Assembly: GCF_037126435.1 (NCBI RefSeq)
Contig: NZ_CP147020.1
Coordinates: forward strand, 1,587,293 to 1,651,292
DNA length: 64,000 nucleotides
Direction of reading: 5' to 3'
Source of the DNA: Bernardetia sp. ABR2-2B
GTDB taxonomy: Bacteria > Bacteroidota > Bacteroidia > Cytophagales > Bernardetiaceae
The position numbers and the translations under genes are program-made. The notes beneath the pieces are model-generated. The model was not told the origin of the DNA, did no database searches, and saw nothing but the letters and a program-made list of their open reading frames with translations. Of this stretch, positions 34,134-57,732 are shown in pieces; within the stretch, counting starts at the first letter, position 1, and each line of letters starts with the position of its first letter.

Positions 34134-34175
34134 ACTTGTTGGTATCGCCGAGCTAAAACACCAACAAAGGCTAGG
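34134..34175. repeat. copy 1 of the hairpin repeat family (core GCTAAAACACCAACAAAGGCTAG)
   Basis: TTGTTGGT…ACCAACAA inverted arms around the loop ATCGCCGAGCTAAA. Near-identical copies at 50347-50386 and 57696-57732. Confidence 0.75.
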
Positions 34176-34176
34176 T

Positions 34177-34224
34177 TATTTTTCCTTAGAATTGGGTTTA
34201 CAAACCCAATTCTAAGGAAAAATA
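34177..34224. repeat. perfect 48-bp palindrome (TATTTTTCCTTAGAATTGGGTTTACAAACCCAATTCTAAGGAAAAATA)
   Basis: Self-complementary over the full length with a 3-nt centre (ACA). Sits about 25 nt 3' of the stop of 34248..35486. Confidence 0.8.
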
Positions 34225-34247
34225 TGCATTCTTAAAAACTTCACTAT

Positions 34248-35486
34248 TTAAAAGTAATACTTACTAACTAATATTCTTCCCATATACATTATCCCTGACA
34301 TGCTATGCAAAGCTATTAAAAACCATATGCTTATTTTTTTTAAATCTAGTGATTCTGTTAGAGTACGTTTCATAAACTCTACTCCAAAGACTAAGAACAT
34401 AATATAATTACACATAGTAACTTGCCAAAGGAAATTACCAGATGGAGCAATAGAGCTATTATTTACTTCTGCAAATGAAACAAATATCATAAGAGCAAGT
34501 ATAGAAAAAGCTAAGGAGTAGTAAACCAAATTACTATGTTTCTTATAAAAGACAAAATATAGAATTGGTAATATAGACACAGAAAAAAATGAAAGGATAG
34601 GAGCTAATATAGGATTACCTAACTGTAGTTGCCACACAGAAAATGGCGAAAATATAATACTTGGCTGGTTTATCTGTGCATAACTTCCTCCATAATCAGA
34701 ACTAAACAATATTAAAGAATGTAACAATATTAAAATAAAAGGAATTACACAAGCTGGTAAAGCCAACCAAAAGTTTTTTGTTAATTTATATTTGTAGAAG
34801 ATACAACAAAAATAAATAGGTGAAAAACATAACGTAAAGTTTGGTTTGACAAAAAAACAAGTTATAGCTAGTATAGTAATTAAAGTATTTAATCCTTTTT
34901 CGTTTAGAAAAACTTTTTTGTAGGTCAAATAAAACAGAAGCACACAAAAAGGTAACATAAAAGTAGTGGTAGAATTGTGCCAAGTATTAGGAGACAATTC
35001 ACCCATATAGAAATTTAAGTGATTTCTATCTAAAATTGTATTAAACGGAATATGCCCTACAAAACATATTGCTATCGCCAAATAATTAATATAATTATCA
35101 AAAACCTTTGTATCGATATTATAAATAATTAAGTAATCTTTTATAATCCATTTACTTATACTATATTTTGCTGCCCATGATAAAGAAAGCACAATAGCAG
35201 AAATAAAACCCAGCCACTGAAGGTTAGCATAAAAACCTCCCAAGACTATGACCGTACCAAAGTATAAAAAATTTAGAGGAGCATGAGATAATCCTTTTTC
35301 TATCCACAGTTTAGCAAATCCAGCATGTGGCTTTATGTCAGTGAAATTTTTACCTGCTAGAGCTGGATGCAATAAATAAACATACATTAAAAATGCAATA
35401 AAAAAAGTTATATAAAAAAACTTATCTTTCAAAACAAATTTTATTATTGCTGATGTTTTTTCTTTATTCATTTTTTCTTTATTCAT
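34248..35486 (-). CDS. polytopic membrane protein, candidate Wzy-like polymerase (paralog of 43681..44901)
   Basis: 412 aa with about 10 TM helices. Clear paralogy to 43681..44901 (…KDKFFYITFFIAFLMYVYLLHP… vs …KDKTFYIVLALSFMVYVYMLHP…; NTWHNSTT, KPNFTLCFSPIYF and NFLWQV(T/V)MCNYIM are shared). Confidence 0.45.
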   Translation of the reverse strand: MNKEKMNKEKTSAIIKFVLKDKFFYITFFIAFLMYVYLLHPALAGKNFTDIKPHAGFAKLWIEKGLSHAPLNFLYFGTVIVLGGFYANLQWLGFISAIVLSLSWAAKYSISKWIIKDYLIIYNIDTKVFDNYINYLAIAICFVGHIPFNTILDRNHLNFYMGELSPNTWHNSTTTFMLPFCVLLFYLTYKKVFLNEKGLNTLITILAITCFFVKPNFTLCFSPIYFCCIFYKYKLTKNFWLALPACVIPFILILLHSLILFSSDYGGSYAQINQPSIIFSPFSVWQLQLGNPILAPILSFFSVSILPILYFVFYKKHSNLVYYSLAFSILALMIFVSFAEVNNSSIAPSGNFLWQVTMCNYIMFLVFGVEFMKRTLTESLDLKKISIWFLIALHSMSGIMYMGRILVSKYYF

Positions 35487-35512
35487 TTTTTCTATTATGA
35501 AATAATATAGAT

Positions 35513-36841
35513 TTACAAAGATAAATATATTTTTATCATTTCTCTACCTACCTCTTTCGTGGTTCTGGGAGTTTTTATATTTCTTTTGAGTTTATGAGCT
35601 AAATCTTTTTGATGAGCTACTTTTACTAATGTCTTTTTTAATGATTCTGTATCATCAAATTGATATAAAAAACCTGTTTTATTGTCTTCAACAAGTTCTA
35701 CTACTCCTCCTATGTTTGCAGCAATAATCGGAATTTGATTTGCAAATGCCTCATAAGCTACAATAGGTCCTGTTTCTAAACACGTCGAAGGGATACATAA
35801 ATAATCTAGTTTTTCCATAAAAGAGTTTACCTTTTCTGCTGGTAGATTTTCTTGATATTTTATATTTGGTAAAGATTGTATTTTTTTTTGTAAACTATTA
35901 TAATATTCTAAATAATAATCCTGCTTTACACCTACAATATCTAGTTCAAGTTCAAGATTTGGATTTTCTGTCAATGCCTTTTCATATCCATCTAACAAAA
36001 CATGCAACCCTTTCATGGGTTCTAGTCTTCCAATAAATCCAATTTTTATATTCTCTTGTGGCTTTTCTGTTTTTGTTGCCTCTTGTGCATTTATATTTTC
36101 TAAATAGGTCGTACTTACTCCTTGCCTACAAATTTTGAGGTGACTTGATGAAACATTGTTTATTAAAAAAGCATCATAGAGCCACTGACAAACTGCAATA
36201 ATATAATTTGTATTTTTTTCTAATTCTACAAGCGTATTTTTTTTCTGACTGACAATACTAAATTGAGGAACTTTACTTTTCAGAAGGTTTGATATAAGAG
36301 TTGATTTGGCAAGTATTCCTGTAACTTCTGCCACTATTTTGTTTTTGTGTCTCTGTTGTGCCTGACAATAACCACAGGTAGTGTTTTGTAGTTTTCCATT
36401 ACAAACTTTGTTGGGGTATTGTATAAAATCTCCTTTTGGACAAATAACACCAGGGATATGTGCCGTAAAAAGTGTTTTGATTCCTTTCTCTTTGGCTATT
36501 TTGAGATGACGATAATTAAGTGGTGTGGAGAGGGTATGTAAATGAAAAATATCAGGTTTTAACTTGTTCAGTAATTCTTCAAAATTTTGCCACCCTCTAC
36601 AAATTACTTTATCTGTTACTTCCTCATGAGTTAGCTCTTCTGGAACTCCAAATCGATGTACTTTATGTTCTTTTCCTTTTACATCTTCGTTTTGATAGGA
36701 ATAATTTCCTTTAGAACTAGGCGCAATAACAATAACTTCTATATTTTGAGAAACAAGATAGATAGCCAAATCGTGGACATACTTTTCTGTTCCTCCAATA
36801 GAATCGGGATAATAATAGCCTACTCCTAATGCAATTTTCAT
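35513..36841 (-). CDS. glycosyltransferase family 4
   Basis: N-terminal …YYPDSIGGTEKYVHDLA… and C-terminal …GGVVELVEDNKTGFL… motifs. Confidence 0.75.
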   Translation of the reverse strand: MKIALGVGYYYPDSIGGTEKYVHDLAIYLVSQNIEVIVIAPSSKGNYSYQNEDVKGKEHKVHRFGVPEELTHEEVTDKVICRGWQNFEELLNKLKPDIFHLHTLSTPLNYRHLKIAKEKGIKTLFTAHIPGVICPKGDFIQYPNKVCNGKLQNTTCGYCQAQQRHKNKIVAEVTGILAKSTLISNLLKSKVPQFSIVSQKKNTLVELEKNTNYIIAVCQWLYDAFLINNVSSSHLKICRQGVSTTYLENINAQEATKTEKPQENIKIGFIGRLEPMKGLHVLLDGYEKALTENPNLELELDIVGVKQDYYLEYYNSLQKKIQSLPNIKYQENLPAEKVNSFMEKLDYLCIPSTCLETGPIVAYEAFANQIPIIAANIGGVVELVEDNKTGFLYQFDDTESLKKTLVKVAHQKDLAHKLKRNIKTPRTTKEVGREMIKIYLSL

Positions 36842-36853
36842 TTTTCTGTCTAT

Positions 36854-37819
36854 TTATTTTTTTCTTATTTTTCTATACGAATTAGCTAACCGTTCAGCCT
36901 TTGTGTACCCTATCAGAGAACTCAAATATTTCATTCCTTTTGATTTTTGAGGAATAAAATGAGGTTCTATTTCGTAAATTTTAGCAATTGCTTCTTTAAA
37001 AAGTTGCTTTTCATTATTTAATCCAAAAACTTGAATGCAATAACGATAACACTCTATTAAAGCATGTGCTTTGTCTTTTCTAGTTTTTAAATCACTCTTC
37101 CATAATTCATGAATTTGTTTTGCATTTGTAAAAACATCACTTACAAACTTCACTTCACCATGACGTTGTGATAAAGAAGTTCCTTCCGAAACTCTATATT
37201 TTGCCATTATTCCTTTAGTATAAACAAACTTTCCTTTTTGAATAGCTGCATCTAAAAAATAACGAGCGTCTTGAATAATTGGTAAGTCCGTATTCCAAAC
37301 TCCAATTTTATCTACAATAGATTTAGAATATAAAATAGCAGCAGGAGGACACCAAAAGTCTGTAAAAAGAGCAATTTCTTCATCTCCTTCAATTTGTCTT
37401 TCTACTTTTTCTAAATACTTCTTTTCTTTATTTTGATCACTTATTTTTTCAGAAAACTTCTGCCAATCTCCGTAGGCTACATCAGCTTTGTTTTCTTCTA
37501 AGGCTTTGTATTGAATTTCTATTTTCTGAGAAGTAAGCAAATCATCACTATCCAAATATTGAATATATTCTCCTTTTGCTAGTTTTCTACCTGTTTCTCT
37601 AGCTGCACTTACACCTCTATTGGGCGTATCTATTAAAATAATTTGATTCTGTTGTTCATACTCTTTCAGAATAGTTAAAGTAGAATCTGTTGAACCATCA
37701 TTAACTACAATAACTTCTACATTTTCAATTCCAATACTTTGATTAAATACACTTTCTAAGGTCTCTTTAATAAAAGATTCGCAATTGTAAGCAGGAATAA
37801 TAACAGAAATGAGTTTCAT
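36854..37819 (-). CDS. glycosyltransferase family 2
   Basis: N-terminal VIIPAYNCESFIKETLESV…VVNDGSTD (GT-A fold, DxD region). Confidence 0.8.
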   Translation of the reverse strand: MKLISVIIPAYNCESFIKETLESVFNQSIGIENVEVIVVNDGSTDSTLTILKEYEQQNQIILIDTPNRGVSAARETGRKLAKGEYIQYLDSDDLLTSQKIEIQYKALEENKADVAYGDWQKFSEKISDQNKEKKYLEKVERQIEGDEEIALFTDFWCPPAAILYSKSIVDKIGVWNTDLPIIQDARYFLDAAIQKGKFVYTKGIMAKYRVSEGTSLSQRHGEVKFVSDVFTNAKQIHELWKSDLKTRKDKAHALIECYRYCIQVFGLNNEKQLFKEAIAKIYEIEPHFIPQKSKGMKYLSSLIGYTKAERLANSYRKIRKK

Positions 37820-38066
37820 TAAAATAATTACGAATTAAAGATTACGGATTACGGATTACGAATGTAAATACTTTGAACTCTATATGATTTTAAGCTGCAA
37901 CTTAAGGAAATTTGACTTATCAGTACACCTTCAAGGTGTCAGATAATTTGTTTTTGAACTGTACTGACACTTATGAAAGTGTCTGACAGAGTAAAGTGCA
38001 ACTAATTTGATAAAGAACCATAGTTTGTAATAAAATTTTTACTGTAAAAACTGTCAAACGACCAGT

Positions 38067-40331: not shown

Positions 40332-40361
40332 GAGTAATGAAAATTAGTTACTTTTTTTAGA

Positions 40362-41309: not shown

Positions 41310-41329
41310 ATAAACAAGTTAATAGATGA

Positions 41330-43680: not shown

Positions 43681-44901
43681 TTATGAGTATGCTTTATTGA
43701 TTATGATATACATAATATATAAAAAGCCACTTACAAAATGAGCAAAAAATATAGCTCCTACTACTATATCTTTTGTTTCTATTTGTCTTGAAAAGATTTT
43801 TTTAAGGAAATGCGTCAAGAAAACAAGCATCATTATATAATTACACATAACTACTTGCCATAAAAAATTACCATCTCTATTATAATCTCCATTTGCTATT
43901 TCTGCAAAAAGAATCAGAATAGACAAGGCAGTCAGAACAAAAAACAAAGATAATAATTGTAGTTTAGAATATTTTTTATAAACTATTCCGTAGATAATTG
44001 GAAAAGTATAAATTCCTAAAAAGGCAAATAAGAACTTGAAATAAGTAACAAAGTCAGTTGCTCTCATCTGTGCATTCCAGCCTTGGAAAAGAGCTATTGT
44101 TATTCCTCCATTATTTTTTTGAGCATACTGTCCTCCTAACTCATTACTAAAAAGATGCAAAGATTGAGTAGCCAAAAGCAATAGGGGAACGATTACGGCA
44201 GGAAGAGCATACCAAAACTCTCTGTTCAATCTATACTTATATGCAATACATAAAAAGTAAATGGGAGAGAAGCATAAAGTAAAATTAGGCTTTATAAAAA
44301 AACACACAATGGCTAATAGATTAATGTATTTTGTGTAATTTTCCTTCTCTAAAAATATTTTCTTGTATGCTAAATAAAAAAGTAGTGTACTGAAAGGAAG
44401 CATAAAAATTGTGGTAGAATTATGCCACGTGTTGGGCATCAATTCTGCAAGATAAAAATATACGTGCTGCCTATACAAAATACTATTCAAAGGGATGTGC
44501 ATGACAAACGTAAGTAGAAATGCAAACACTTTGATTGTAGTTTCTCTTTCTGAAATGTCTACTTTTTGTTGCCTCAAACAATCTGTAATAATATATCTGC
44601 TTACACTATATTTAGCTGCCCACATAATGGAAAGGACTACTGCCGAAGCAATATATAAAATTACTATACTTTTTTGAAGACCTGCAAATATAGCTACCGT
44701 TCCAAAGTACAAGAAATTCATAGGCATTGCCTCAAAACCTTGTTCTAGCCACTTCAATACAAATTCAGCGTGTACTCTTACGTCTGTCCACATAGTTCCA
44801 CCCAAACGAGGATGTAACATATAGACATACACCATAAAGGAGAGAGCCAAAACGATATAGAATGTTTTGTCTTTCGCTACGAAGTTAATGATAGATTTCA
44901 T
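43681..44901 (-). CDS. polytopic membrane protein, candidate Wzy-like polymerase (paralog of 34248..35486)
   Basis: 406 aa with about 10 TM helices. Paralogy as described for 34248..35486. Confidence 0.45.
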   Translation of the reverse strand: MKSIINFVAKDKTFYIVLALSFMVYVYMLHPRLGGTMWTDVRVHAEFVLKWLEQGFEAMPMNFLYFGTVAIFAGLQKSIVILYIASAVVLSIMWAAKYSVSRYIITDCLRQQKVDISERETTIKVFAFLLTFVMHIPLNSILYRQHVYFYLAELMPNTWHNSTTIFMLPFSTLLFYLAYKKIFLEKENYTKYINLLAIVCFFIKPNFTLCFSPIYFLCIAYKYRLNREFWYALPAVIVPLLLLATQSLHLFSNELGGQYAQKNNGGITIALFQGWNAQMRATDFVTYFKFLFAFLGIYTFPIIYGIVYKKYSKLQLLSLFFVLTALSILILFAEIANGDYNRDGNFLWQVVMCNYIMMLVFLTHFLKKIFSRQIETKDIVVGAIFFAHFVSGFLYIMYIIINKAYS

Positions 44902-44931: not shown

Positions 44932-45648
44932 CTAAAACTCTTTTACCAAAGTTACTTTCTCAGTCAGTTCAAGCACTCTATTTACTTGCTGCTCAAATTC
45001 CAAATCTGTAGTATCTATTTCAATAGCATCATCAGCTTTTCTAAGTGGACTTTCTTCTCTAGTAGAATCTATAAAATCTCTTTTCTCAAGATTAGTAATA
45101 ATCTCTGAAAGCTCTACACTTTGCCCTAAACGCTCCAGTTCTTTTTGACGGCGCAATGCTCTAACAGGCACTTGTGCAGTCATAAATACTTTGAGTTCTG
45201 CGTTAGGAAAAACGACTGTTCCGATGTCTCTTCCATCCATTACAATTCTCTTTTTTTCTCCCATCAAACGCTGCTGTGCTACCAAAAAATGACGTACTTC
45301 AGCAATCGTACTTACTTCGCTTACTCGTTCTGAAATATGCATCTGACGAATAAGTGATTCTACATTTTCTCCATTCAAATAAATATGGCTACTTTTGGTT
45401 TCCTCATCAAACTTAAACTCTAATAAAATAGAAGTAAGTGCTTTTCTAACTTGTCCTTTGCTAAAATGATCTACCTTATGGCGATAGAAATAGAGCGTTA
45501 CGGCTCTATACATAGCCCCAGTATCGATATAGGCATAACTCAAGCGAGAAGCAACAGCTTTTGCCGTGCTGCTTTTCCCACAACCTGAATAGCCATCAAT
45601 AGCAATAATGATATTTTTGGTTTCTATATTTTGATGAGATTGATTCAT
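44932..45648 (-). CDS. cmk: (d)CMP kinase
   Basis: P-loop IIAIDGYSGCGKSSTAKAVASRLSYAYIDTGAMYRAV is the canonical Cmk N-terminus. Start is chosen at the Met at 45648. The listed ORF extends a further 15 codons to 45693. Confidence 0.85.
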   Translation of the reverse strand: MNQSHQNIETKNIIIAIDGYSGCGKSSTAKAVASRLSYAYIDTGAMYRAVTLYFYRHKVDHFSKGQVRKALTSILLEFKFDEETKSSHIYLNGENVESLIRQMHISERVSEVSTIAEVRHFLVAQQRLMGEKKRIVMDGRDIGTVVFPNAELKVFMTAQVPVRALRRQKELERLGQSVELSEIITNLEKRDFIDSTREESPLRKADDAIEIDTTDLEFEQQVNRVLELTEKVTLVKEF

Positions 45649-45808
45649 AGCATTTGATATTTTTTCAAAAAATAATGTGTCGCAAAGGTACAAAACTTAT
45701 AGAAATAATTTTATGCTGCTCTCAAAACAAAACTCTTTTGTTAGTTTTAGTTTAATAGATGTAATTTTGTTGTATCCTATTCAAGTAAAAAATAATTACG
45801 GATTTAAA

Positions 45809-46357
45809 ATGATGAACACCAACAAACTCAAAAAGATGACTTTATTGAAAAATACACTAGTTATTTTCGCTTTACTTTTCTTATTTAGTTGTACAGCAAA
45901 TCAAGGAGATTATACGATTCCTACAGATGCTTATATTGTAGCGAAATTTGTAGTTTTAGATGAAAAACTAAGTCCAAAAAATCAAAATTGTGTCGCAGAA
46001 ATTAATAATTTTAAAAAATTTGATTTTCATAAACATTGCTCTTTTTTGCTAGAAGAAATGGAATTTGATATAGATGAACAATATATTTTTGATAAAAGTG
46101 GAGAGTTAATTGGTTATTTAGATTATAAATCAGAAGGTGCAATTATTTATTCATGGGAAAATTCTGAAAATTTATCTGATTGGGATTCACTTTACCAAAA
46201 TAATAAACATAGTTTTTTAGAAGATAAAAAATATATTATTGATAGTTCTGATACTTTAGAAATTGAGCGTATTTTTTCAGATGAAAAACTAATTTTTACA
46301 AAAAGAACACAAAAACAAATTGAAGATAGTAGAAGAGTAATTTATCAATATGAATAA
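45809..46357 (+). CDS. hypothetical lipoprotein
   Basis: In-frame Met at 45809 gives MMNTNKLKKMTLLKNTLVIFALLFLFSCTANQ (signal plus lipobox). The upstream part of the listed ORF overlaps the cmk start and is unlikely to be coding. Confidence 0.5.
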   Translation: MMNTNKLKKMTLLKNTLVIFALLFLFSCTANQGDYTIPTDAYIVAKFVVLDEKLSPKNQNCVAEINNFKKFDFHKHCSFLLEEMEFDIDEQYIFDKSGELIGYLDYKSEGAIIYSWENSENLSDWDSLYQNNKHSFLEDKKYIIDSSDTLEIERIFSDEKLIFTKRTQKQIEDSRRVIYQYE

Positions 46358-46393
46358 AATTTGATTATCCCTTTCCCACCAAAAAATTGTAAT

Positions 46394-46582
46394 TTTAACG
46401 TAAACTCGGGATTATACCTACTGACTGTCAAATAGTTAGCCTGTTCTTTTTAATCTTCGATGCTGTCCTTTCGGGCTGACCTTGATTAAAAATAGGTCAG
46501 TCTCGTTAGAGCAGACCGAAAGTAGCTTTCCTTGTAGATAGAGAGATATTTCAGACTGTTTTTAATACCGAGTTCACGTTAA
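46394..46582. repeat. 189-bp MITE-like or structured element bounded by 15-18-bp terminal inverted repeats
   Basis: The left end TTAACGTAAACTCGG (46394-46408) is the reverse complement of the right end CCGAGTTCACGTTAA (46568-46582) with 1 mismatch. The interior carries nested GGTCAG/CTGACC hairpin motifs. The core ATAGGTCAGTCTCGTTAGAGCAGACC recurs in inverted orientation at about 51040-51075. Confidence 0.55.
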
Positions 46583-46730
46583 TTTTAGATAAGACAAAAA
46601 TTATATGAAAATTAAAAAGGAATTATAAATAATTTCAAACATTCTCAACGTAAAGCCTAATCCTTACGTTCTACTTATACACAGTAAAAAGAAATTTATC
46701 CTAACTAAAAACTAAGCTACAAATCTCTGT

Positions 46731-47891
46731 ATGCCCTCTCAAAACCATTCACGTAACTCTAATAATTCACGAAGAAGAAGAAGAAAAAAAGATTCTTGGC
46801 GTAGGCGAAATACAAGACGTACATTTCGTTTTATCAATAGTATCGTTTTGGTAGTTTCTTGTATTGCATATTTGTCTGTTCTTGTTTCTCCTGAATACTT
46901 TTGGTTTGCAGGTTTTGTTTCAATGTCAATTCCTTTTTGTTTGATAGCTAATATTTTTTTTGTTTTTCTGTGGTGGTGGCGCAAACGATGGTATGCACTT
47001 TATTCTTTGTTTATTTTATTGCTTGGTTTTCCTTTTTTTCTAGCCAGTATAAGTTTGGGAGGAATTTGGAATGAAAATATTGAAAACGACAAAAATTACT
47101 TATCAGTTTTGTCTTATAATGTAAGAGAGTTTGATATTTATCAAAGGCAGAAAGATGACTATACAGTTACCAAAAACACTATTAAGTGGATAAAAAACGA
47201 TACTTCAGATGTAAAATGTATTCAAGATTTTTATAACTCTGAAAGCGCAAAAATATTTAATACAAGGGAAAAGTTATCAGAACAAGATTCAGAAACTCCT
47301 TATAATTTTCATGTTCGCTATACATCTGCAAATCATCGTAAAGGTCAGTTTGGAATCGCCATTTTTTCGAAATATCCATTTATTAATAAAGGAGAAGTTA
47401 CTTTTAAAGTAAAGACAGATAATGGTGCTATTTTCGCTGATATCGTAAAAGGAAAAGATACAATCAGAATTTATAATATTCATTTGGAATCAATGAGCAT
47501 TAATCAAAACGAACTACAACTCATTGACCAGCCCGAGCAAACTTTTTGGTATGCAGGAAAACGCCTTAAAAGAGGATTTGCGATGAGAGCTGGGCAAGTA
47601 CAGACAATTGCAGAACACATAAAAACAAGTCCTTATCCTGTTATTTTGTGTGGAGATTTGAATGATTTGCCCTATAGTTATACCTATTTCAAACTTCGCA
47701 GAAACCTAAAAAACGCATTTGAAAGCAAAGGATTAGGAACAGGATTTACATTTAATGGAAAACTATTTTTTCTTAGAATAGATAATCAGTTTTATGATAA
47801 CGAAAATTTAGATTGTATTTATTTCAATACACATAGAGAAGTTCCCTTTTCAGACCATTACCCTGTTCGTGCAGTTTATGAAATAGAATAA
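46731..47891 (+). CDS. membrane-anchored endonuclease/exonuclease/phosphatase (EEP)-family protein
   Basis: Arg/Lys-rich N-terminus, 3 TM helices, then an EEP domain (…LSYNVREFD…IYNIHLESMS…ILCGDLNDLP…FSDHYPVRAVYEIE). Confidence 0.65.
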   Translation: MPSQNHSRNSNNSRRRRRKKDSWRRRNTRRTFRFINSIVLVVSCIAYLSVLVSPEYFWFAGFVSMSIPFCLIANIFFVFLWWWRKRWYALYSLFILLLGFPFFLASISLGGIWNENIENDKNYLSVLSYNVREFDIYQRQKDDYTVTKNTIKWIKNDTSDVKCIQDFYNSESAKIFNTREKLSEQDSETPYNFHVRYTSANHRKGQFGIAIFSKYPFINKGEVTFKVKTDNGAIFADIVKGKDTIRIYNIHLESMSINQNELQLIDQPEQTFWYAGKRLKRGFAMRAGQVQTIAEHIKTSPYPVILCGDLNDLPYSYTYFKLRRNLKNAFESKGLGTGFTFNGKLFFLRIDNQFYDNENLDCIYFNTHREVPFSDHYPVRAVYEIE

Positions 47892-48000
47892 AAAAGAAAA
47901 ATCTATTTTTTTGAGTACAAATGACTTTCAAAATCTAAAATGTTTTGATTTTTTGGTGTTCTATTCTTTATTTTTGCTCAAAAAAAGCGTTATTTGTAGT

Positions 48001-48534
48001 ATGAAAGAAGAAGAAAAAATAATAGAAGCAAGAGCAAAACTTAGTTTTGAAGAATACCTCCGACTAAACTTTTCACTATTACTACGTAGCAAAATGGTTT
48101 GGTTAAGTCTCTTTTTGGCGACTATGCTTATCGTGATGCTTTTGGAAAAACGCCTTACAGATGGGCAATGGGCAGATTCAGAACTAAAACTTGGTTTGCT
48201 TTTGAGCTTGACAGTTTCTTTATTTTTGGTATTGCCCTTACTCACTTACCTAAGAACGAAAAATTATTTTGAGAAAAACCCTTCTCTTTCAGAACTAACA
48301 ACTTTTTATTTTGAGCCTGAACGAATAGAAGTAGTTACCTTAGAAAGCCATACGACACTCACTTGGCGACGAATTTATAAAATAAGAGAATTCAAACATT
48401 ACTTGCTTATCTATCAAAATAGACATATTGCTTACGTAGTTCCCAAAAAATCCTTTGATTCGGTTTCAGATATGGAGGCAGTAAAAGAAATGATTCGTAG
48501 CAAAACAAAACTAGGATATCGTCTAAAAAGTTAA
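48001..48534 (+). CDS. hypothetical membrane protein (YcxB-like layout)
   Basis: Met at 48001 gives MKEEEKIIEARAKLSFEEYLRLN… followed by two TM helices and a soluble C-terminal domain. Upstream ORF codons are probably non-coding. Confidence 0.4.
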   Translation: MKEEEKIIEARAKLSFEEYLRLNFSLLLRSKMVWLSLFLATMLIVMLLEKRLTDGQWADSELKLGLLLSLTVSLFLVLPLLTYLRTKNYFEKNPSLSELTTFYFEPERIEVVTLESHTTLTWRRIYKIREFKHYLLIYQNRHIAYVVPKKSFDSVSDMEAVKEMIRSKTKLGYRLKS

Positions 48535-48631
48535 ATTATTTGAATCATTAACTATTAAATGACGGATAATCAACAACTAATCAACTCCTATTTTTTTATA
48601 CTATCCCAAATTTTTATTATCCTACAACGAT

Positions 48632-49162
48632 ATGCTTTGCTCTGTTTCTACTTTTGGTTTAGTTTTACTCTTTCTGATTGTCGGTGCTTTTTTTGCTCTA
48701 ATTGCTTTGAGTATTGGAAAAATTTTTCGTCCTAATAATCCTACACCAGAAAAAATAACTACCTATGAATGTGGAGAAGAAACTGTAATTGGAAGTTGGG
48801 GTAAGTTCAATATTCGTTTTTACTTAATTGCACTAGTTTTTGTACTCTTTGAGGTAGAAATTATATTTTTATTCCCTTGGTCAAAAATTCTGACTGATGC
48901 TAAATTACAAGCCTTAGAAAGTAATTGGAAAATATATGCGTTTACAGAAGGACTTTTATTTATTGGTATATTAGTGATGGGATTGGCTTACCTTTGGAAA
49001 AATAACTTTTTAGATTGGAATCTTGACTTTTCAGAAAAAGATAGAAACCAACCAAATAAATTAGAAAATTTAGATTTGTCTCAACAAGGCAAAGACGGAG
49101 AAAATAGTTCTAAGACAATTCCTAGTTCTGTTTATCAACAAATAAATATGCGTTATGACTAA
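48632..49162 (+). CDS. NADH-quinone oxidoreductase subunit A (NuoA/ND3)-like protein, orphan copy with a hydrophilic C-terminal tail
   Basis: Three TM helices. The diagnostic loop YECGEE… and FYLIALVFVLFEVEIIFLFPW match the NuoA/ND3 family. No other nuo genes are adjacent. Confidence 0.6.
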   Translation: MLCSVSTFGLVLLFLIVGAFFALIALSIGKIFRPNNPTPEKITTYECGEETVIGSWGKFNIRFYLIALVFVLFEVEIIFLFPWSKILTDAKLQALESNWKIYAFTEGLLFIGILVMGLAYLWKNNFLDWNLDFSEKDRNQPNKLENLDLSQQGKDGENSSKTIPSSVYQQINMRYD

Positions 49163-49240
49163 AAAACTACTACATAATTAAAATAAATTTGAATGGATAA
49201 CACCTCATTTTATAAAAAATAATTATCTAATAATCTCACT

Positions 49241-50311
49241 ATGACTTGGATTAAGTTACTTCTTAGCTTGGGAACTGCATTCGCTATCTGTTTGCTACTC
49301 ATTCCCGAAATCATCAAAATTGCTAATTCTCGTAATATACACGACCAACCCAACGAGCGAAAAATTCATACAGGAAAAATTTGTTCTTTTGGAGGAATAG
49401 GTATTTTTTTTGGTTTTATTATTTCTACATTGATATGGTCTTTTGTAGATATGACCCTAAACATGGAGTTTTTGATGGGTGCTGTTTTGGTTATGGTAGT
49501 GGTTGGAATGCGAGATGATTTTTTGCCGTTAAGTGCCTTTTGGAAACTAATAGGACAACTTGTAGCAATCGCTGTTCTTTTGATTGGAGATATTCGTATT
49601 TCTTCTCTGTATGGCTTTTTGGGAGTTTATGAACTCAATATCGTTTTTAGTTATCTAGTTACTGGTTTTATTGTGATTGTCATTACAAATGCTTTTAACT
49701 TGATTGATGGAATTGATGGATTAGCTGGTTCGGTTGCCTTGATTGTTTTTAGCTTTTTTGGGCTTTGGTTTGCTTTGGAGGGTAGTTTTGCTCTTTCTGC
49801 AATGTGTTTGGCTGTTTTGGGTAGTGTTGGAGGTTTCTTGTATTATAACTATAGTCCTGCTCGTATTTTTATGGGCGATACAGGCTCTTTGATGCTTGGT
49901 TTTTTGGCTACTGGTCTTTTAATTATTTTTTTAAATAAAAATGCTGCTTTACCTACTACGAGCGAATTGCATATTGTAGCTCCATTATCGCTGCTTTCTG
50001 CACTGATGGTTTATCCACTTTTTGATACTATTCGTGTTTTTATGTTGAGAGCTTTTGCTGGTCGTTCTCCTCTTTCTCCTGACCGTAATCATATTCATCA
50101 CTTGCTTTTAGACATCGGTTGTAGTCATTATTATATTGTAGGAATTGTAATTTTCTTGAATATTTTGTTTGTCTTTATTTTTACTTTTATTGGACAAATG
50201 GGTTATCTATCTGATAATTGGCTTGTTCCTATTATTGTCTTGACGGCAAGTAGTTTGGCAGTTTTTCTACATAGAAAAGTAAAACGAAGAAGAGAAGTAG
50301 TAAATATTTAA
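49241..50311 (+). CDS. undecaprenyl-phosphate sugar-1-phosphate transferase, glycosyltransferase family 4 (MraY/WecA/WbpL family)
   Basis: NAFNLIDGIDGLAGSVALIV and NYSPARIFMGDTGSLMLGF are signature motifs of the MraY/WecA superfamily. About 10 TM helices. Confidence 0.85.
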   Translation: MTWIKLLLSLGTAFAICLLLIPEIIKIANSRNIHDQPNERKIHTGKICSFGGIGIFFGFIISTLIWSFVDMTLNMEFLMGAVLVMVVVGMRDDFLPLSAFWKLIGQLVAIAVLLIGDIRISSLYGFLGVYELNIVFSYLVTGFIVIVITNAFNLIDGIDGLAGSVALIVFSFFGLWFALEGSFALSAMCLAVLGSVGGFLYYNYSPARIFMGDTGSLMLGFLATGLLIIFLNKNAALPTTSELHIVAPLSLLSALMVYPLFDTIRVFMLRAFAGRSPLSPDRNHIHHLLLDIGCSHYYIVGIVIFLNILFVFIFTFIGQMGYLSDNWLVPIIVLTASSLAVFLHRKVKRRREVVNI

Positions 50312-50346
50312 ATAATTAAGTTATCTAAGCAGGGGGTTTGTTCATA

Positions 50347-50386
50347 TTTGTTGGTGTCGCTACGCTAAAACACCAACAAAGGCTAG
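50347..50386. repeat. copy 2 of the hairpin repeat family (TTTGTTGGTGT-CGCTACGCTAAA-ACACCAACAAAGGCTAG)
   Basis: 11-bp stem and 12-nt loop. Lies between convergent genes 49241..50311 (+) and 50447..50887 (-). Confidence 0.75.
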
Positions 50387-50446
50387 TGTATTTTAAAATA
50401 TCCTAAACAAAAAAAAGGATTCAAATAGTATGAATCCTCTTTTAAT

Positions 50447-50887
50447 TTATTCTTCTTCTTCCTGTTCTGTTATGAGGGTTTCTTTCTCTTGAATTTCGTA
50501 TTCTTTTAGCCATTTTTTTGCTTCTTCAAGGTCGTCAAAAAAGTGCATTGTATAACTATTGTCAGTCATGTCTTCACCTATTTTTTTAACAGCAAGTTGG
50601 TTAAAAACATCTTTTGACATAACCACAGCAGCCGTTCTGATACCAGCTTCTAAAAGGCGAGGAAACCAATTTTCATTTGTCCATTTTTGATCATCAGGCG
50701 TTATCGCACCCATTTCAGCCATATTTGCAAGCCATCTAGTAACTCCTTTTTCTTGTACTTTTTCTAATCCTGTATTCATTCCATGTTTGTATTTTGCAGA
50801 AGTAGCAAAGCCAGTCCATTGCATATGAATACAATTTACATCTTCGTCATGATGAATCGTTAAATGTTTTTCTTCAAATAAAGGCAT
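50447..50887 (-). CDS. small hypothetical protein; paralog of 3345..3746
   Basis: See 3345..3746. 146 aa with an acidic C-terminal tail EQEEEE. Confidence 0.55.
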   Translation of the reverse strand: MPLFEEKHLTIHHDEDVNCIHMQWTGFATSAKYKHGMNTGLEKVQEKGVTRWLANMAEMGAITPDDQKWTNENWFPRLLEAGIRTAAVVMSKDVFNQLAVKKIGEDMTDNSYTMHFFDDLEEAKKWLKEYEIQEKETLITEQEEEE

Positions 50888-51153
50888 GATATATAAAATT
50901 AATAGTAATAGTAGTTTTTATAATTAGAAATTATTTAAGAATAGAAAACTAGATTTTCAAAATGATTTTTTTATAGCAAATAGGTCAGTCCCAAAGGGCA
51001 GACTGTCTACTAAAGTTGCAAGTATCAACTACAAAACGGTCTGCTCTACGAGACTAACCTATCTAGAAGTAATTCTTAAACAGCTTCTTAAAAAAGTAGC
51101 TTTTTTTGTAATTACAATTTATATATTTTAGACAAGAATTAAAAATTTGCCTT

Positions 51154-52236: not shown

Positions 52237-52244
52237 AGAATATA

Positions 52245-53057
52245 TTAGTTTTTCAAATAAGCATTTTGCATCATTTCAAAGGCTTTTAACTTGAGTTTTT
52301 GAAGGTCTTGAATAGTCATTCCTTCGGTAGAAATAGGTTCTAAAAATTCTACTTCGACAAACCCAGCTTTTACTCTCCAACTATTTTTGGGAAGCATTTT
52401 TCGTGTATTCTTTATGACAATAGGCGCAATTGGTGTTTGCGTTTCGATAGCCACCATAAATGCACCCTCATGAAAACGCAACATATCGTGCTGCGAATTA
52501 TTCATTGTTCCTTCTGGAAAAATCATAACATGAATTTGTTTTCTTAGCTTTTCTTTCACTTGTCTTAGGCTTCGTCTTTTACTTTCCATACTACTTCTAT
52601 CGACGATAACACCAATGTATTTAAAAATTAAACCAAAAACAGGCATTTTCAGAATTTCAATCTTTCCCAAAGCTCTAAACTGATTTGGAATAGCGAGTGT
52701 AATGGCTGGTGAATCTAAAAACGAGTTATGATTAGCCACAAAAATATAAGGTTGATTTTTTTGAAGCGTTTTTTTATTTTTTATCTTATAAATAATTCCA
52801 CTCAAAAAACTAAAACTAAAACCCCAAATCTTCATGATTTTAAAAGCAAAAGTTCCACCTCTTTTCTCATCAATTAAAATAGGAAGTATGATAAAAGGCG
52901 CACAAACAACCATAATCCAAAAGAAATTGAAGAATGTCCACATCGAAAATGCAATCTGAAAAAAAGTAGTGAAAGGACGTGTCAAGACGGTCAGTCCTCT
53001 ATCTTCGATGTAAAGTAATAGAGAGTTTCTCAACTCATATAATTTTTCCTGTATCAT
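52245..53057 (-). CDS. plsC: 1-acyl-sn-glycerol-3-phosphate acyltransferase
   Basis: N-terminal TM, HxxxxD motif (ANHNSFLD) and FPEGT motif of LPLAT acyltransferases. Confidence 0.75.
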   Translation of the reverse strand: MIQEKLYELRNSLLLYIEDRGLTVLTRPFTTFFQIAFSMWTFFNFFWIMVVCAPFIILPILIDEKRGGTFAFKIMKIWGFSFSFLSGIIYKIKNKKTLQKNQPYIFVANHNSFLDSPAITLAIPNQFRALGKIEILKMPVFGLIFKYIGVIVDRSSMESKRRSLRQVKEKLRKQIHVMIFPEGTMNNSQHDMLRFHEGAFMVAIETQTPIAPIVIKNTRKMLPKNSWRVKAGFVEVEFLEPISTEGMTIQDLQKLKLKAFEMMQNAYLKN

Positions 53058-53374
53058 AATTAAAAAAAATTCGTTTGTTTTAAGAGAAAGAGAGATTATT
53101 TTATAAAAAATACGTTGTTTGAAGGTTTATTGTATGTTACATTGCTTAGGAACTGAATATCTAAAAAGGTTTGTGCTTAAATACTATTTTGAATAGAAAA
53201 ATAAGAGAAACATAAACTCTTAATTTAGAATACTATTTATAACGTAAATACTTTCAAAAAATTCAATAAAAAATCAAATAATTGCAAAGATAAGAACAAA
53301 TAAAGTAGCTAACTATAAAAAAGTTACTTGAAATAGTTAAATTATTTCTAGTCTTATCATAAAGCAAAAGCTAT

Positions 53375-54097
53375 CTATTTTTTTACTTCTCTTGGCTTCC
53401 ACTCTTCCAAAAACTGCTCAATTGTTTGTGCCTCTTCAACGACAAAATTACCTATTTTTGTGCGACGAAGCCCTGAAAGATGTGCACCTGTTTCTAGTTT
53501 TTGCCCCAAATCATGTGCTAGACTTCTGATATAAGTTCCTTTACTACAAACAATTCTCAAAGAAATTATAGCTTCATTTTCTGATATATTAGATTCTATG
53601 ATTTCTAATTCTGAAATTGTTACTTTTCTTGATTTGAGTTTTATTTCTTCTCCTTCTCTTGCAGACTGATAGGCTCTTTTTCCATTGACTTGCACAGCCG
53701 AAAAAATAGGAGGAACTTGGTCTATTTCTCCTTCAAAATCACTTAAAGCTGTTTGAATTTTTTCTAATGTAAGGTCAGAAATATCTTTTTTATTTTCTAA
53801 TTCTGATTCCAAATCATAAGAAGCTGTTGTAAAACCAAATGTAATTTGTGCTACATATTCTTTTTCTTGTCCTTGAAAATTTTCAATCTGCTTTGTCATT
53901 TTTCCAGAACAAAGAATTAATAAACCTGTGGCTAATGGGTCAAGCGTTCCTGCATGTCCTACTTTTACTTTTTTCTTTTGCTCAAATTTTTTGATAGCAT
54001 AACGAATCTTATTTACTACATCAAAAGATGTCCAAGTAAGAGGTTTATCTATCAAAATTACTTTCCCTTGTGAAAATACTCCTTGTTCTTCTTGCAT
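53375..54097 (-). CDS. truB: tRNA pseudouridine(55) synthase
   Basis: Catalytic-Asp motif KVGHAGTLDPLATGLLILC and TruB-length protein. Confidence 0.85.
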   Translation of the reverse strand: MQEEQGVFSQGKVILIDKPLTWTSFDVVNKIRYAIKKFEQKKKVKVGHAGTLDPLATGLLILCSGKMTKQIENFQGQEKEYVAQITFGFTTASYDLESELENKKDISDLTLEKIQTALSDFEGEIDQVPPIFSAVQVNGKRAYQSAREGEEIKLKSRKVTISELEIIESNISENEAIISLRIVCSKGTYIRSLAHDLGQKLETGAHLSGLRRTKIGNFVVEEAQTIEQFLEEWKPREVKK

Positions 54098-54127
54098 TTT
54101 TTTTCGCTCGTATTTTAAAATTTATTT

Positions 54128-54757
54128 CTAAGAAACATTGTCTATTTCTTTATTGCTTTCCTCTTTCTGGTTCTTCTTTATCTCTTTATAAAGTATTTTT
54201 TCAATGCGTTTGTCAGGAACAACCCAAAGCAAAGCAACGCCAATATAAATAGAAATAGAAATCCATTGACTAACAAAAGAAAGAGGAATAGCAACAGCGT
54301 ACAAAACTAGTGAAATTTTACCTTTATAGTCTTTTCCGATAGCTTTATTTAAAATTGAGTTTTCTCCATGAATTTTGAGAATGAGAGATTGTAAAATAAA
54401 ATAAGCAATAGCACTCATCAACAAAACAACTCCATAAAGAGCCTCTGGAACAGCCGAAAAATTAGTTCTTCCTACCCAACCTGATGTAAAAGGAATTAGA
54501 GAAAGCCAAAAAAGTAAGTGCAGATTTGCCCAAAGCACTTTTCCATTTACGTATTTTGTGGCTTGAAAAAGGTGATGATGATTATTCCAATAAATCCCCA
54601 AATACAGAAAGCTCAAAATATAACTCAAAAAAATAGGATATACTTTTTCTAAATCGTGTAAAGCTCCTCCTGTTGGAACTTTCATTTCCAAAACCATAAT
54701 AGTAATAAGAATTGCCAAAACGCCATCACTAAAGGCTTCTAGTCTGCTTGATTTCAT
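54128..54757 (-). CDS. DUF1211/TMEM175-like membrane protein (putative K+ channel family)
   Basis: N-terminal RLEAFSDGVLAILITIMVLE is the hallmark of DUF1211. 6 TM helices. Confidence 0.65.
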   Translation of the reverse strand: MKSSRLEAFSDGVLAILITIMVLEMKVPTGGALHDLEKVYPIFLSYILSFLYLGIYWNNHHHLFQATKYVNGKVLWANLHLLFWLSLIPFTSGWVGRTNFSAVPEALYGVVLLMSAIAYFILQSLILKIHGENSILNKAIGKDYKGKISLVLYAVAIPLSFVSQWISISIYIGVALLWVVPDKRIEKILYKEIKKNQKEESNKEIDNVS

Positions 54758-55002
54758 TTATAAAATAATTATTGGAGTTACGAATGAGATTTATTTATCA
54801 GATGGAGTAATTGTGAGTTCAACTCTTAAAAACTAGATAGTAGTATTTGTTGCTTGTAAAGCAAAGATAATAAATCAGACTACGAAAATCTATGAAATTG
54901 TTTGAAGGAGAATATATTTTACCTGTTATACAACTTGATTTAGATTACAAACAATTCTCTCATTTTTATTTAGAATTATTCTAAAAAATGACAAAAGTCA
55001 TT

Positions 55003-55032
55003 TTTTTTTGTGCCTTCTCTACCGTATTTTTG
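55003..55032 (+). promoter_or_regulatory. candidate Bacteroidota sigma-A-type promoter (-33 TTG / -7 TAnnTTTG)
   Basis: TATTTTTG at about 55024-55031 with TTG about 20 bp upstream. It lies 35 bp before the ATG at 55068. Confidence 0.3.
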
Positions 55033-55067
55033 CATAAAATGAAATTGTCTATAATTAGTCTAAATAA

Positions 55068-57689
55068 ATGAACACATTTCTCACCTCTTCTTTTTGTTGT
55101 TTTTACAAAAACCTTTTTTGTCTTTGTTGTTGTTGCTGTTGTATAGCTTGTCATTTTTGCCTAGCTCAAAATAGTAATGACTTAGAAGCATCTATCAAGA
55201 CAAATACGAGATTAGAAACACAGATTCGAATAAAAGGAAAGGTTTCTACCTCTTCTAATTTTGACAAAAACGAACCTCTTTTTGGTGCAACTATCGTCGT
55301 TCAGGAGCTGAATAAATACGCTCAAAGTGATACAGATGGCAATTTTTTATTAGAGTTTTTTACTACCTCTTCTACTTCCCATCAATCTACTTATACATTA
55401 GTTGCTTATTTGTATGGCTTCAAAACGGTTTCAAAAGAGATAAATATTAGAGAAAAAAACACATTAACTATTGATTTTAACTTAGAAGAGCTACAAGATT
55501 CTTTGAAAACAATAGTGGTAGAAGGAAATTCAGAATTAGAAAACTCTAATTTAATGGCTCGTCTTAATACCGTTGATGGAATGGGGATTTATGAATCTAA
55601 AAAGACGGAAGTAATTGTTTTGGACAACACAACAGCAAATTTGGCAGCCAATAACTCAAGACAAATTTATGCAAAAGTAGCAGGGCTGAACGTTTGGGAA
55701 AGTGATGGAGCAGGTATTCAGTTAGGAATCGGAGCTAGAGGACTTTCACCCAACCGAACAGCAAATTTTAATACTCGTCAAAATGGTTATGATATTTCTG
55801 CTGATGCACTCGGTTATCCTGAAAGCTATTATACGCCACCAGTTGAGGCTGTTGAGAGAATTGAACTTGTGCGTGGTGCAGCTTCTTTGCAGTATGGAAC
55901 GCAGTTTGGTGGAATGCTCAATTTCGTAATGAAAGATGCTCCTAAAAACAAAAACTTTGAGACTAACTTACGCCAAACAGTAGGTTCTTATGGCTTTACA
56001 AGTAGTTTTGTTGATGTAGGTGGGAATTTGGGAAAGACAAATCAAAACGGAGATTCAAAACTAAGTTATTACGGATTTTATCAATATAAACGTGGCGATG
56101 GTTGGAGAGAAAACTCTGGCTTTGATGTGCATACAGGTTTTGCAAAACTTACTTTCCGTCCTTCTTCAAAATTCAAAATTTCGGTAGAATATACTGGAAT
56201 GAATTACCTTGCACAACAAGCTGGTGGACTTACTGATGCTATGTTTGAGCAAAATCCACGTCAGTCGATTAGAGATAGAAACTGGTTTGCCGTAAACTGG
56301 AACTTAGGAGCAGTTATTTTAGATTATAAAATTTCTAATAAAACAAAAATCAATAGCCGTACTTTTGGGCTTTTGGCAGGAAGAAAAACAGTAGGAAATT
56401 TGGATAAGATAAGTGTCATTGATTTTGGACAAAATAGAACTTTAATAGATGGGGATTTCAAAAACTTTGGAAATGAAACTCGCCTTTTACATCGTTATTC
56501 TATTCATTTTTTAGGAGAAAAATTAAAGAAACAAACACACGCTTTTATCACAGGTTTTAGATATTACAGTGGCTTCACAACACAACGACAAGGCGATGCA
56601 GATGCAACAAATAAACCTAACTTTGCTTTCTTAAACTCTGAAAATTTAGAAAATTCTTCCTACCAGTTTCCAAATCAAAATGCTTCTTTTTTTATAGAAA
56701 ATGTCTTTAACCTTTCTGATAAATGGAGCATTACCCCTGGAATTAGAGCCGAATATATCAAAACACAAGCTGACGGATTTTATAAAGAACGAGTTTTTGA
56801 TTTTGCAGGAAATTTGATTTCTGAAACCAAAAATGAAGAAAATTTAGAACGCCCTAGAAGTTTTGTTTTAGGTGGAATAGGAATTAGTTATAAACCTGTT
56901 TTGAATAACAAAAACGAATTAGAGATTTATGCAAATTTCTCTCAAAATTATCGTTCGGTTACCTTTAGTGATTTGCGTATTCAGAATCCAAATTTGGTAA
57001 TTAGTCCAGATATAAAAGATGAAAGTGGTTATAATGCAGACTTAGGTTTTCGTGGTAAAATCAATACGCTTTTACAATTTGATGTAAGTCTTTTTTACTT
57101 GAATTATAATGACAGAATCAGTCAAGTAGAACGTACAGGCGTTGCTCCAACGTACACTCCCTATCGTTTTAGAGGAAATATCGCTCAAGCTAGAATTTAT
57201 GGAATTGAATCACTTTTAGAATTTAATGTCGGAAAATTAGGTAATAATTGGATTGAGAATATTCTACCAAAATCATATTTGGGACTTTATTTGAATACTT
57301 CTATTCTGAAAAGTAAATATACAAATTCAGAAGAAACAGCAATTTTGGGAAGAGAAGTTGAGCTTGTTCCACCTATTACGCTGCGTACAGGTTTGCAGTT
57401 TGGTTACAAAGATTTCAAACTCTCTTATCAATATTCCTACACACATGAGCATTTTACAGATGCCACCAACGTTGTCAGAAGTGCGACGGCTGTTAGTGGA
57501 ATTATTCCTTCATATTATGTGATGGATTTGTCGATGAGCTATTCTTACAAATGGCTAAAACTAGAAGGAAGCATAAATAATCTCACAAACAATTCTTATT
57601 TTACAAGACGTGCAGATGGCTATCCTGGACCTGGAATTATTCCTGCTGATGCTAGAGCTTTTTTCTTGACTTTGGGAGCTAGTTTTTAG
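55068..57689 (+). CDS. TonB-dependent outer-membrane receptor with an N-terminal carboxypeptidase-regulatory-like domain
   Basis: CarbopepD_reg-like block (GATIVVQELNKYAQSDTDGNFLL), a plug region and a long beta-barrel ending …FFLTLGASF (C-terminal Phe). The signal region is unusually Cys-rich (CLCCCCCCIAC). Confidence 0.8.
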   Translation: MNTFLTSSFCCFYKNLFCLCCCCCCIACHFCLAQNSNDLEASIKTNTRLETQIRIKGKVSTSSNFDKNEPLFGATIVVQELNKYAQSDTDGNFLLEFFTTSSTSHQSTYTLVAYLYGFKTVSKEINIREKNTLTIDFNLEELQDSLKTIVVEGNSELENSNLMARLNTVDGMGIYESKKTEVIVLDNTTANLAANNSRQIYAKVAGLNVWESDGAGIQLGIGARGLSPNRTANFNTRQNGYDISADALGYPESYYTPPVEAVERIELVRGAASLQYGTQFGGMLNFVMKDAPKNKNFETNLRQTVGSYGFTSSFVDVGGNLGKTNQNGDSKLSYYGFYQYKRGDGWRENSGFDVHTGFAKLTFRPSSKFKISVEYTGMNYLAQQAGGLTDAMFEQNPRQSIRDRNWFAVNWNLGAVILDYKISNKTKINSRTFGLLAGRKTVGNLDKISVIDFGQNRTLIDGDFKNFGNETRLLHRYSIHFLGEKLKKQTHAFITGFRYYSGFTTQRQGDADATNKPNFAFLNSENLENSSYQFPNQNASFFIENVFNLSDKWSITPGIRAEYIKTQADGFYKERVFDFAGNLISETKNEENLERPRSFVLGGIGISYKPVLNNKNELEIYANFSQNYRSVTFSDLRIQNPNLVISPDIKDESGYNADLGFRGKINTLLQFDVSLFYLNYNDRISQVERTGVAPTYTPYRFRGNIAQARIYGIESLLEFNVGKLGNNWIENILPKSYLGLYLNTSILKSKYTNSEETAILGREVELVPPITLRTGLQFGYKDFKLSYQYSYTHEHFTDATNVVRSATAVSGIIPSYYVMDLSMSYSYKWLKLEGSINNLTNNSYFTRRADGYPGPGIIPADARAFFLTLGASF

Positions 57690-57695
57690 ATGCTT

Positions 57696-57732
57696 TTTTG
57701 TTAGTGTAGTTGCGCTAAAACACCAACAAAGG
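57696..57732. repeat. copy 3 of the hairpin repeat family (TTTGTTAGTGT-AGTTGCGCTAAA-ACACCAACAAAGG)
   Basis: Immediately 3' of the TonB-receptor stop. One G-to-A mismatch in the left arm. Confidence 0.7.

Follow-up and report, generated by a model that had tools for sequence, protein, structure and literature searches.

Three intergenic hairpins at a Bernardetia polysaccharide locus: probable members of a 37-nt REP family associated with a RAYT clade

The window analysed here, a stretch of 64,000 nt from Bernardetia sp. ABR2-2B (contig NZ_CP147020.1, positions 1,587,293 to 1,651,292 of the forward strand), carries a minus-strand polysaccharide cluster, a TonB-dependent receptor gene and three short intergenic hairpins of closely similar sequence, each downstream of a stop codon. 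The repeat family to which these hairpins belong is called P2 in this report, which is concerned with the structure and spread of P2 and with the genes for REP-associated tyrosine transposases (RAYTs; HUH/Y1 enzymes, Pfam PF01797) that it flanks in related lineages. The copies in the window are as follows, and the strand on which the foot (GCC) comes first is the minus strand for all three.

34135..34171, minus strand: P2 copy 1, partly decayed, the plus strand reading CTTGTTGGTATCGCCGAGCTAAAACACCAACAAAGGC; a passenger within a miniature inverted-repeat transposable element (MITE) termed MITE-1
50347..50383, minus strand: P2 copy 2, a perfect family consensus, 35 nt past the stop of a WecA-like GT4 gene, between convergent genes
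57697..57733, minus strand: P2 copy 3, with left arm and loop decayed, 7 nt past the stop of the TonB-dependent receptor gene

A sequence-only reading had described a conserved three-copy hairpin, and this was confirmed. The 19-mer GCTAAAACACCAACAAAGG has exact matches at 34152, 50364 and 57714, all on the plus strand, against 0.02 expected, and three matches were reached in none of 100 shuffles. It makes up the right half of a 37-nt unit with sharp bounds, laid out on the plus strand as NTTGTTGGTGT-CGCTNCGCTAAA-ACACCAACAAN'-GGC; when aligned, the three copies were alike over about 37 nt and without similarity further out. On the minus strand, the unit has its GCC foot at the 5' end; then come one arm of the 11-bp stem, a loop of 12 nt that is conserved (TTTAGCGNAGCG), and the second arm. 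In copy 2 the hairpin is perfect, with all 11 bp of the stem and the 12-nt loop, and its fold as single-stranded DNA was calculated at -10 kcal/mol (z -3.6 to -4.5). Copies 1 and 3 have 3-5 substitutions in the left arm and loop and 1-2 stem mismatches.

The gene positions first assigned to the three copies also hold. Copy 1 is found 77 nt past the stop of a Wzy-like gene, which is on the opposite strand and belongs to the minus-strand polysaccharide cluster, and 260 nt upstream of the next glycosyltransferase gene. Copy 2 is flanked by the WecA-like GT4 gene and a convergent SpoIIAA-like gene, and copy 3 follows the TonB-receptor stop. Copy 3 has orthologous copies in L040 and L013 (handles of this form denote fetched loci and contigs) and is considered older because it is common to both. 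Neither Rfam nor a tRNA fragment, the two comparisons suggested beforehand, provided an identity: scanning of the window hairpins against Rfam gave nothing at gathering score and only generic hairpin matches far under threshold, and ARAGORN called no tRNA. A TnpB/omega-RNA system was considered for copy 1 and dropped, the 412-aa neighbour being without a Pfam match and flanked on both sides by glycosyltransferases. Promoters of the Bacteroidetes -33/-7, sigma-54 or extracytoplasmic function type within P2 were rejected by eye on wrong spacings, TAnnTTTG being found only in the Bernardetia MITE copies.

Approximately 150 P2 copies were recovered overall from Cytophagales genomes and metagenomes. 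The genome scan, an exact-match search of one genome per species, returned 82 stretches (about 70 with the whole hairpin) from Bernardetia, a 'Flexibacter' bin, Raineyaceae bins and other Cytophagales. The metagenome scan was anchored on the loop only, with both arms free to vary, and yielded 54 further copies. In a first pass of 85 exact-core matches, nine were within a called open reading frame (ORF) of at least 100 aa, six of them by chance in unrelated taxa. Bernardetia, Raineyaceae and other Cytophagales/Bacteroidota bins all have the same 36-mer, so that the original description of the element as specific to this lineage was too narrow. P2 copies are also carried on Bernardetia plasmids; phage records and viral contigs gave no match, and a phage origin was rejected. 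The complete 5.9-Mb chromosome of Bernardetia sp. OM2101 has 17 exact-core copies on mixed strands and without a replichore pattern, by which a replication-strand bias was rejected.

Across the family, information content is near zero in the flanks, jumps at position 1 and drops beyond position 37. The 91 copies scored at position 16, which belongs to the loop, all have A, T or G there, and a RAYT-flanking copy (L173:6617) has C. The unpaired bases conserved 3' of the stem are GG plus C or T (on the other strand, GCC before the stem); as nothing more is conserved there, the trailing CTAG noted earlier was discarded as a feature. The ten inner stem pairs and the loop are unchanged in the metagenome set, while the closing pair is T-A, G-C, C-G or A-T. 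Counted over 76 distinct P2 sequences, the closing pair is UA in 30, GC in 13, CG in 8 and AU in 4, and the observed covariation score was reached in 0 of 500 shuffles. Because the closing pair covaries while the inner pairs and loop stay invariant, these sequences indicate that the hairpin is selected and that most of it is also read by sequence. An assignment of the active strand from G-U pairs, by which minus-strand RNA appeared to fold better, was rejected as an artefact of the right arm being fixed in the search, since with that arm fixed every left-arm transition looks like a minus-strand wobble; in the unbiased loop-centred set the wobble pairs number 3 vs 2.

Few P2 sites are orthologous between genomes, and decayed copies are common across the family. 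No target-site duplication was recognised among 126 copies, the best 3-mer flank match being found in 8% of them (2% background) at an inconsistent offset. In one orthologous region, compared between L039 and L069, P2 lies in opposite orientations, and one side has no inverted ends. The site after orthologous WecA-like genes (88-92% amino acid identity) carries P2 in the window, is without it in L165, L166 and L167, and carries another subtype in L168. A Pfam scan of the 51 genes with a start facing P2 gave no enrichment, the flanking genes being functionally unrelated, and the reading of P2 as the mark of a regulon was dropped on this ground. These are the habits of a dispersed mobile repeat and not of gene-specific regulatory sites.

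Several of the fetched loci show rearrangements or further structure around P2. After the WecA-like orthologue in L168 (11076-11197), a P2 variant and a second hairpin are enclosed in a 15-16-bp inverted repeat (TTAGAGTACTGGACA), unique among the fetched data; the fold bounded by this repeat is a three-way junction (z about -8.5). A general 'outer stem' around P2 was rejected, such a stem occurring only in the MITE family and this once in L168. The gene block Exo_endo_phos-YcxB-NuoA-WecA (window 44932-50311) is conserved in L165, L166 and L168 with gene order differing on both sides; the relatives compared around it share 88-92% protein identity, and their genomes are very fluid. In L013 (1047-2042), about 95 nt comprising the TonB-receptor 3' end and P2 are duplicated on either side of an insert of about 850 bp, which holds a 143-aa ORF on the opposite strand; the first P2 copy is degraded, and the duplication looks like recombination at or near P2. 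In L001 (1349-1640), an element of about 240 bp with inverted ends TGTCYGTCAAG is inserted inside a P2 copy, and GCTAAAACACCA (12 bp) is duplicated on both of its sides.

The partner of P2 was recognised on L164, a metagenome contig from the loop-centred scan. A 171-aa ORF on this contig has the HUH motif NHIH and the tyrosine motif YIHNNP, and one P2 copy precedes its start by 43 nt while another follows its stop by 62 nt, the two being inverted with respect to each other and having their GGC/GCC feet outward. Homologues of 78-80% identity occur in two other gene contexts (L173/L174/L175 and L176/L177) with the same P2 flanking, and thus P2-flanked RAYT genes were observed in three independent contigs and contexts. 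Stored annotation assigns Y1_Tnp clearly to the L173-L175 gene and weakly to the L176/L177 gene. At a RAYT of 59% identity in L182 the same stem and foot are present with a short loop, and at L180 (59% identity, upstream flank only) a different stem is combined with the same short loop and the GCC foot. A RAYT of 40% identity (L117) has kept the TTGGTG/CACCAA core and a GGAC foot, again with a short loop. Related hairpins at such distant RAYTs are as expected if enzyme and repeat coevolve. Inverted P2 doublets with feet outward and no gene, resembling REPINs, were found in L072, L055 and L062 (Raineyaceae bins among them) and, as units of about 125 nt, in L159, L095 and L114; the window contains no inverted doublet.

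Further structure was seen in two of these loci. Past the RAYT stop in L164 (1288-1491), two partial left arms (GTTGTTGGTGCTAATTG..) are followed by a full P2, after which the RAYT coding sequence recurs from about codon 57 on; either a second copy of the gene, truncated, abuts P2 here, or the assembly has introduced a repeat. In L159 (2638-10020; also in L095, L114 and L154), six units of about 125 nt, each consisting of a P2-like hairpin with expanded loop, a spacer and P2, separate lectin-like, PEBP, outer-membrane and 2Fe-2S genes.

Since RAYT genes are flanked by inverted P2 in three independent contigs, and since distant RAYTs have hairpins with the same core and GGC foot, the three window hairpins are most probably members of a non-autonomous 37-nt family of repetitive extragenic palindromes (REPs) that is associated with a RAYT clade, copy 1 having been captured by a MITE. 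The REP-like half of the earlier suggestion of a 'REP-like or terminator' element is therefore retained, given the inverted flanking of RAYT genes in related lineages and the dispersed, decaying copies without target duplication. The RAYT-type 5' foot (GCC) on the minus strand of the window and the position of copy 1 inside a MITE are points that the sequence-only reading did not have. By analogy with the RAYT of E. coli and with IS200/IS605 enzymes, the RAYT would bind the P2 hairpin in single-stranded DNA, read the foot, and cut and rejoin there, and P2 copies would thus be moved or copied in trans. Within the window's lineage, most copies are solitary and two of the three window copies are decaying. 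Any effect of P2 on neighbouring genes would be a by-product, for which protection of mRNA 3' ends or, for copy 3 so close behind a stop codon, interference with translation termination are candidates.

This interpretation agrees in many respects with E. coli REP/BIME and Pseudomonas REPIN sequences. Like P2, these are short, imperfect, intergenic palindromes that are dispersed without target duplication and often lie near stops; they occur as singlets, tandem copies and inverted doublets, and they flank a single small HUH/Y1 gene in inverted orientation. A conserved unpaired foot at the stem is shared, and hairpin and enzyme appear to co-diverge. The layout of L164, L173 and L176, with repeat and RAYT gene together, is that of a REPtron. 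The main text of Quentin et al. 2018 (PMC6006769) describes Bacteroidetes RAYT subclasses 2.4 and 2.6 with 'atypical secondary structures' at their flanks, which recur at other places in the genome, as well as REP insertions beside or inside the gene. The P2-linked RAYT shares the NH[IV]H and YIHNNP motifs listed there for both subclasses, and the L164 repeat, if a truncated second RAYT copy abutting P2, resembles the gene-associated insertions. P2 differs from the description of subclass 2.4 in being without three G-C base pairs or a GT[AG]G double foot, and the sequences allow no confident assignment of its RAYT to either subclass as the two are described in that text. Term searches of the main text found no sequences of the atypical structures. 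What this part of the literature does allow for is REP families that are untagged or 'atypical'.

A number of observations weigh against P2 as a RAYT-mobilised REP family. At neither end does P2 have the GTAG or CGTC tag by which the two large REP superfamilies are marked, its foot being GCC (GGC on the other strand). Further features unusual for a REP are the 12-nt near-invariant loop, the retention of the whole 36-mer across families, and a copy number of tens and not hundreds. Neither the window nor any Bernardetiaceae locus that was fetched yielded a RAYT of the clade linked to P2, and motif and tblastn scans of the genome loci for a RAYT beside P2 returned only a pseudogene in L007, located 3.2 kb from P2 and unflanked by it. 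The Bernardetia RAYTs inspected, namely B. litoralis P0126 and two copies on plasmids, have other repeats at their flanks and no P2 within 5 kb, and intact Bernardetia homologues of the L007 pseudogene are flanked by a different repeat. For the window's own lineage we therefore only infer mobilisation, and the family may be a relic there. A loose end is also left by gene orientation. At co-directional sites of the genome set, the GCC-first strand is mRNA-sense in 36 of 47 (36:11), and the TTTG end is no more than 30 nt away from an ORF boundary in 24 of 78 cases, against 4 of 74 for the other end. Neither pattern is obviously predicted by a purely selfish element. A target preference for T-runs beside genes is a candidate that would explain both, and a preference of some kind is suggested by the T-rich flank on the 5' side together with the position of the TTTG end. 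The metagenome set, split 10:9, did not show the orientation bias again, and the end asymmetry reappeared in it only weakly.

The other Bernardetia RAYTs are accompanied by repeats quite different from P2. Multi-hairpin repeats such as ACACGGCTACAAGCCGAATACATA..CTCACTCGGCAAAGCCAAGCGAGAGC and CACGCTTCTGAGGAAGCG.. were seen at L170 4100-5620 (B. litoralis DSM 6794), L171, L172, L007 1100-1760 and L179 2820-3620, from which it follows that several RAYT/REP pairs coexist in the genus. The L007 pseudogene has three in-frame stops, at W, W and Q codons.

There is an outside chance that P2 has been domesticated and is bound by a conserved host factor or a domesticated RAYT, which would tune expression in these Shine-Dalgarno-poor bacteria or promote a cassette-like shuffling of genes. 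Domestication would account for the near-invariant 36-mer, a copy number that is low and similar from one Cytophagales family to another, the orientation bias, and the hairpin ends lying 6-27 nt before starts or just past stops. Hints of an acquired host role are retained in the near-invariance, in the copy number being low, in the L159 array of six units and in the L013 insert with the duplicates that bracket it.

Somewhat less likely again is that P2 is a cis-acting RNA element of the host, recognised by a conserved host factor, with the minus-strand RNA as the functional form and a role in translation initiation or mRNA stability. This would suit the excess of sites at which the GCC-first strand is mRNA-sense, 36 of the 47 independent co-directional sites (p = 3.5e-4), a third of which have the hairpin end 6-27 nt ahead of the next ATG. 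It would also suit the conservation of sequence, loop included, across families and the covariation of the closing pair. Set against this are flanking genes that share no function, sites that are mostly non-orthologous, copies that decay, the loss of the orientation bias in the metagenome set, a minus-strand G-U preference that proved to be an artefact, and the lack of an Rfam match. The conservation of P2 is, moreover, explained by the RAYT flanking without a host function.

We regard as improbable a third explanation, in which P2 is a recombination site at gene-cassette boundaries, comparable to integron attC, through which a site-specific recombinase would shuffle genes in variable loci such as this polysaccharide cluster. 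The six L159 units within 12 kb are all on one strand and separate unrelated genes, the L013 insert is bracketed by duplicates of the TonB-receptor 3' end with P2, two relatives lose synteny after the WecA-like gene at the position of P2, and the window copies share one strand. However, no integrase or recombinase gene was seen near any inspected array, including among the window and L159 genes scanned, and attC R'/R'' core motifs are absent, GTTGTTG and GTTGGTG not fitting the core GTTRRRY. Orientation is mixed genome-wide, most copies are solitary and between housekeeping genes, and the same rearrangements would arise if dispersed REPs recombined by homology.

A fourth explanation concerns the composite that encloses copy 1, and the features that bear on it are given here.

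34103..34242: MITE-1, a 140-nt composite with degenerate 16-bp terminal inverted repeats (TIRs) at 34103-34118 and 34228-34242, holding P2 copy 1 and P3
34179..34222: P3, a 44-nt perfect palindrome (TTTTTCCTTAGAATTGGGTTTACAAACCCAATTCTAAGGAAAAA), a separate repeat module
50927..51087: MITE-2, with the same TIRs (GAAATTATTTAAGAAT ... ATTCTTAAACAGCTTC), a TTA duplication on both sides and no P2

MITE-1 (fold z = -8.0) is an old copy, its ends being degenerate and a duplication no longer recognisable. The cargo of MITE-2 is a different long hairpin (fold z -6.5); it is thus the inverted ends, and not P2, that define the MITE family, since MITE-2 has the same ends without P2. Among 17 end pairs of the type GAAGTTGTTTAAGAAT, 16 enclose a P2-bearing composite and 10 have identical 3-bp flanks (about 2% by chance). 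The composite is classed as a MITE because these 3-bp duplications are combined with inverted ends in multiple copies, and near-identical composites of 140-160 nt are frequent in Bernardetia chromosomes and plasmids. An inverton, or invertible promoter, was disfavoured by the 3-bp target duplications. The likeness to MITEs, in 16-bp TIRs, 3-bp duplications and many near-identical copies, is limited to composites such as 34103-34242 and 50927-51087, as P2 itself has no inverted ends beyond its stem, no target duplications and a mostly separate distribution. Capture of copy 1 by this unrelated MITE provides P2 with a second spreading route.

That P2 is in origin an internal fragment of the GAAGTTGTTTAAGAAT-ended MITE, with solitary copies as its remnants, is still less probable than the cassette explanation. 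Of the roughly 82 copies scored in genome and plasmid loci, about 24 have a MITE end on one side or on both, and copy 1 is inside a decayed copy of that MITE. By contrast, 59 of the roughly 82 have no MITE part, a flanking inverted repeat of at least 10 bp accompanies only about 25 of 120 copies in the wider set, and information content falls to background directly at positions 1 and 37. P2 is also present in lineages and subtypes in which MITE ends were not seen, the same ends enclose other cargo in the window, and P2 flanks RAYT genes without MITE ends.

P3 is a repeat family of its own (TTTTTCC..GGGTTTGCAAACCC..GGAAAAA), with members at window 34179-34222, L004:7352, L040:6062, L086:9568, L098:12216 and L162:5161, and the 6 bp in its middle differ between members by compensating changes. 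Where it lies apart from the P2 composite, P3 forms the centre of another element with inverted ends ATGAGTGACAT...ATGTCACTCAT. P3 is not terminator-like, because T's precede and A's follow it on both strands. P2, P3 and the two kinds of inverted ends are combined as intergenic modules in varied order and number, as in the mosaic intergenic repeats known as E. coli BIMEs, Neisseria NIMEs/Correia elements and pneumococcal BOX; the modules and sequences are unrelated to those, and P2 has an identifiable transposase partner.

Least credible is the reading of P2 as an intrinsic terminator or attenuator at gene 3' ends, the other half of the original suggestion: the hairpins are stable and in the window all follow stop codons, but on neither strand is the stem followed by a T-run, its flanks being AAAGGC and AAATA, 45-50% of family copies face a gene start, copies also lie between divergent genes, and a terminator scan passed over all three copies while flagging the following hairpin, which is likely to be the real terminator of the convergent pair.

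50411..50443: a separate bidirectional terminator-like hairpin from the terminator scan, 28 nt from P2 copy 2

Two longer repeats were also observed in the window. A 77-nt direct repeat (33890-33966 and 35510-35586, 70%) is located just upstream of two consecutive minus-strand polysaccharide genes. A 159-nt repeat (34905-35063 and 44350-44508, 71%) is shared by the Wzy-like gene and a second gene, of 406 aa and lacking a Pfam match, which is probably a paralogue.

In kind, P2 is ordinary, REPs being well known, and the literature searched contained neither the motif nor a description of this family. REPs and RAYTs are well studied in Proteobacteria, while what is known of them from Bacteroidota is confined to 'atypical secondary structures' beside RAYT genes. 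As a probable REP, P2 provides a concrete and easily recognised Bacteroidota example: its unit is defined, its foot is GCC and not GTAG, its 12-nt loop is conserved, it has a clade of enzymes as candidate partners, and its relatives show joint change of repeat and enzyme. The hitch-hiking of a REP within a MITE represents a second way of spread. For annotation, the family accounts for three hairpins in a polysaccharide locus without calling on terminators or new RNAs, and it flags likely recombination-prone spots in these fluid genomes.

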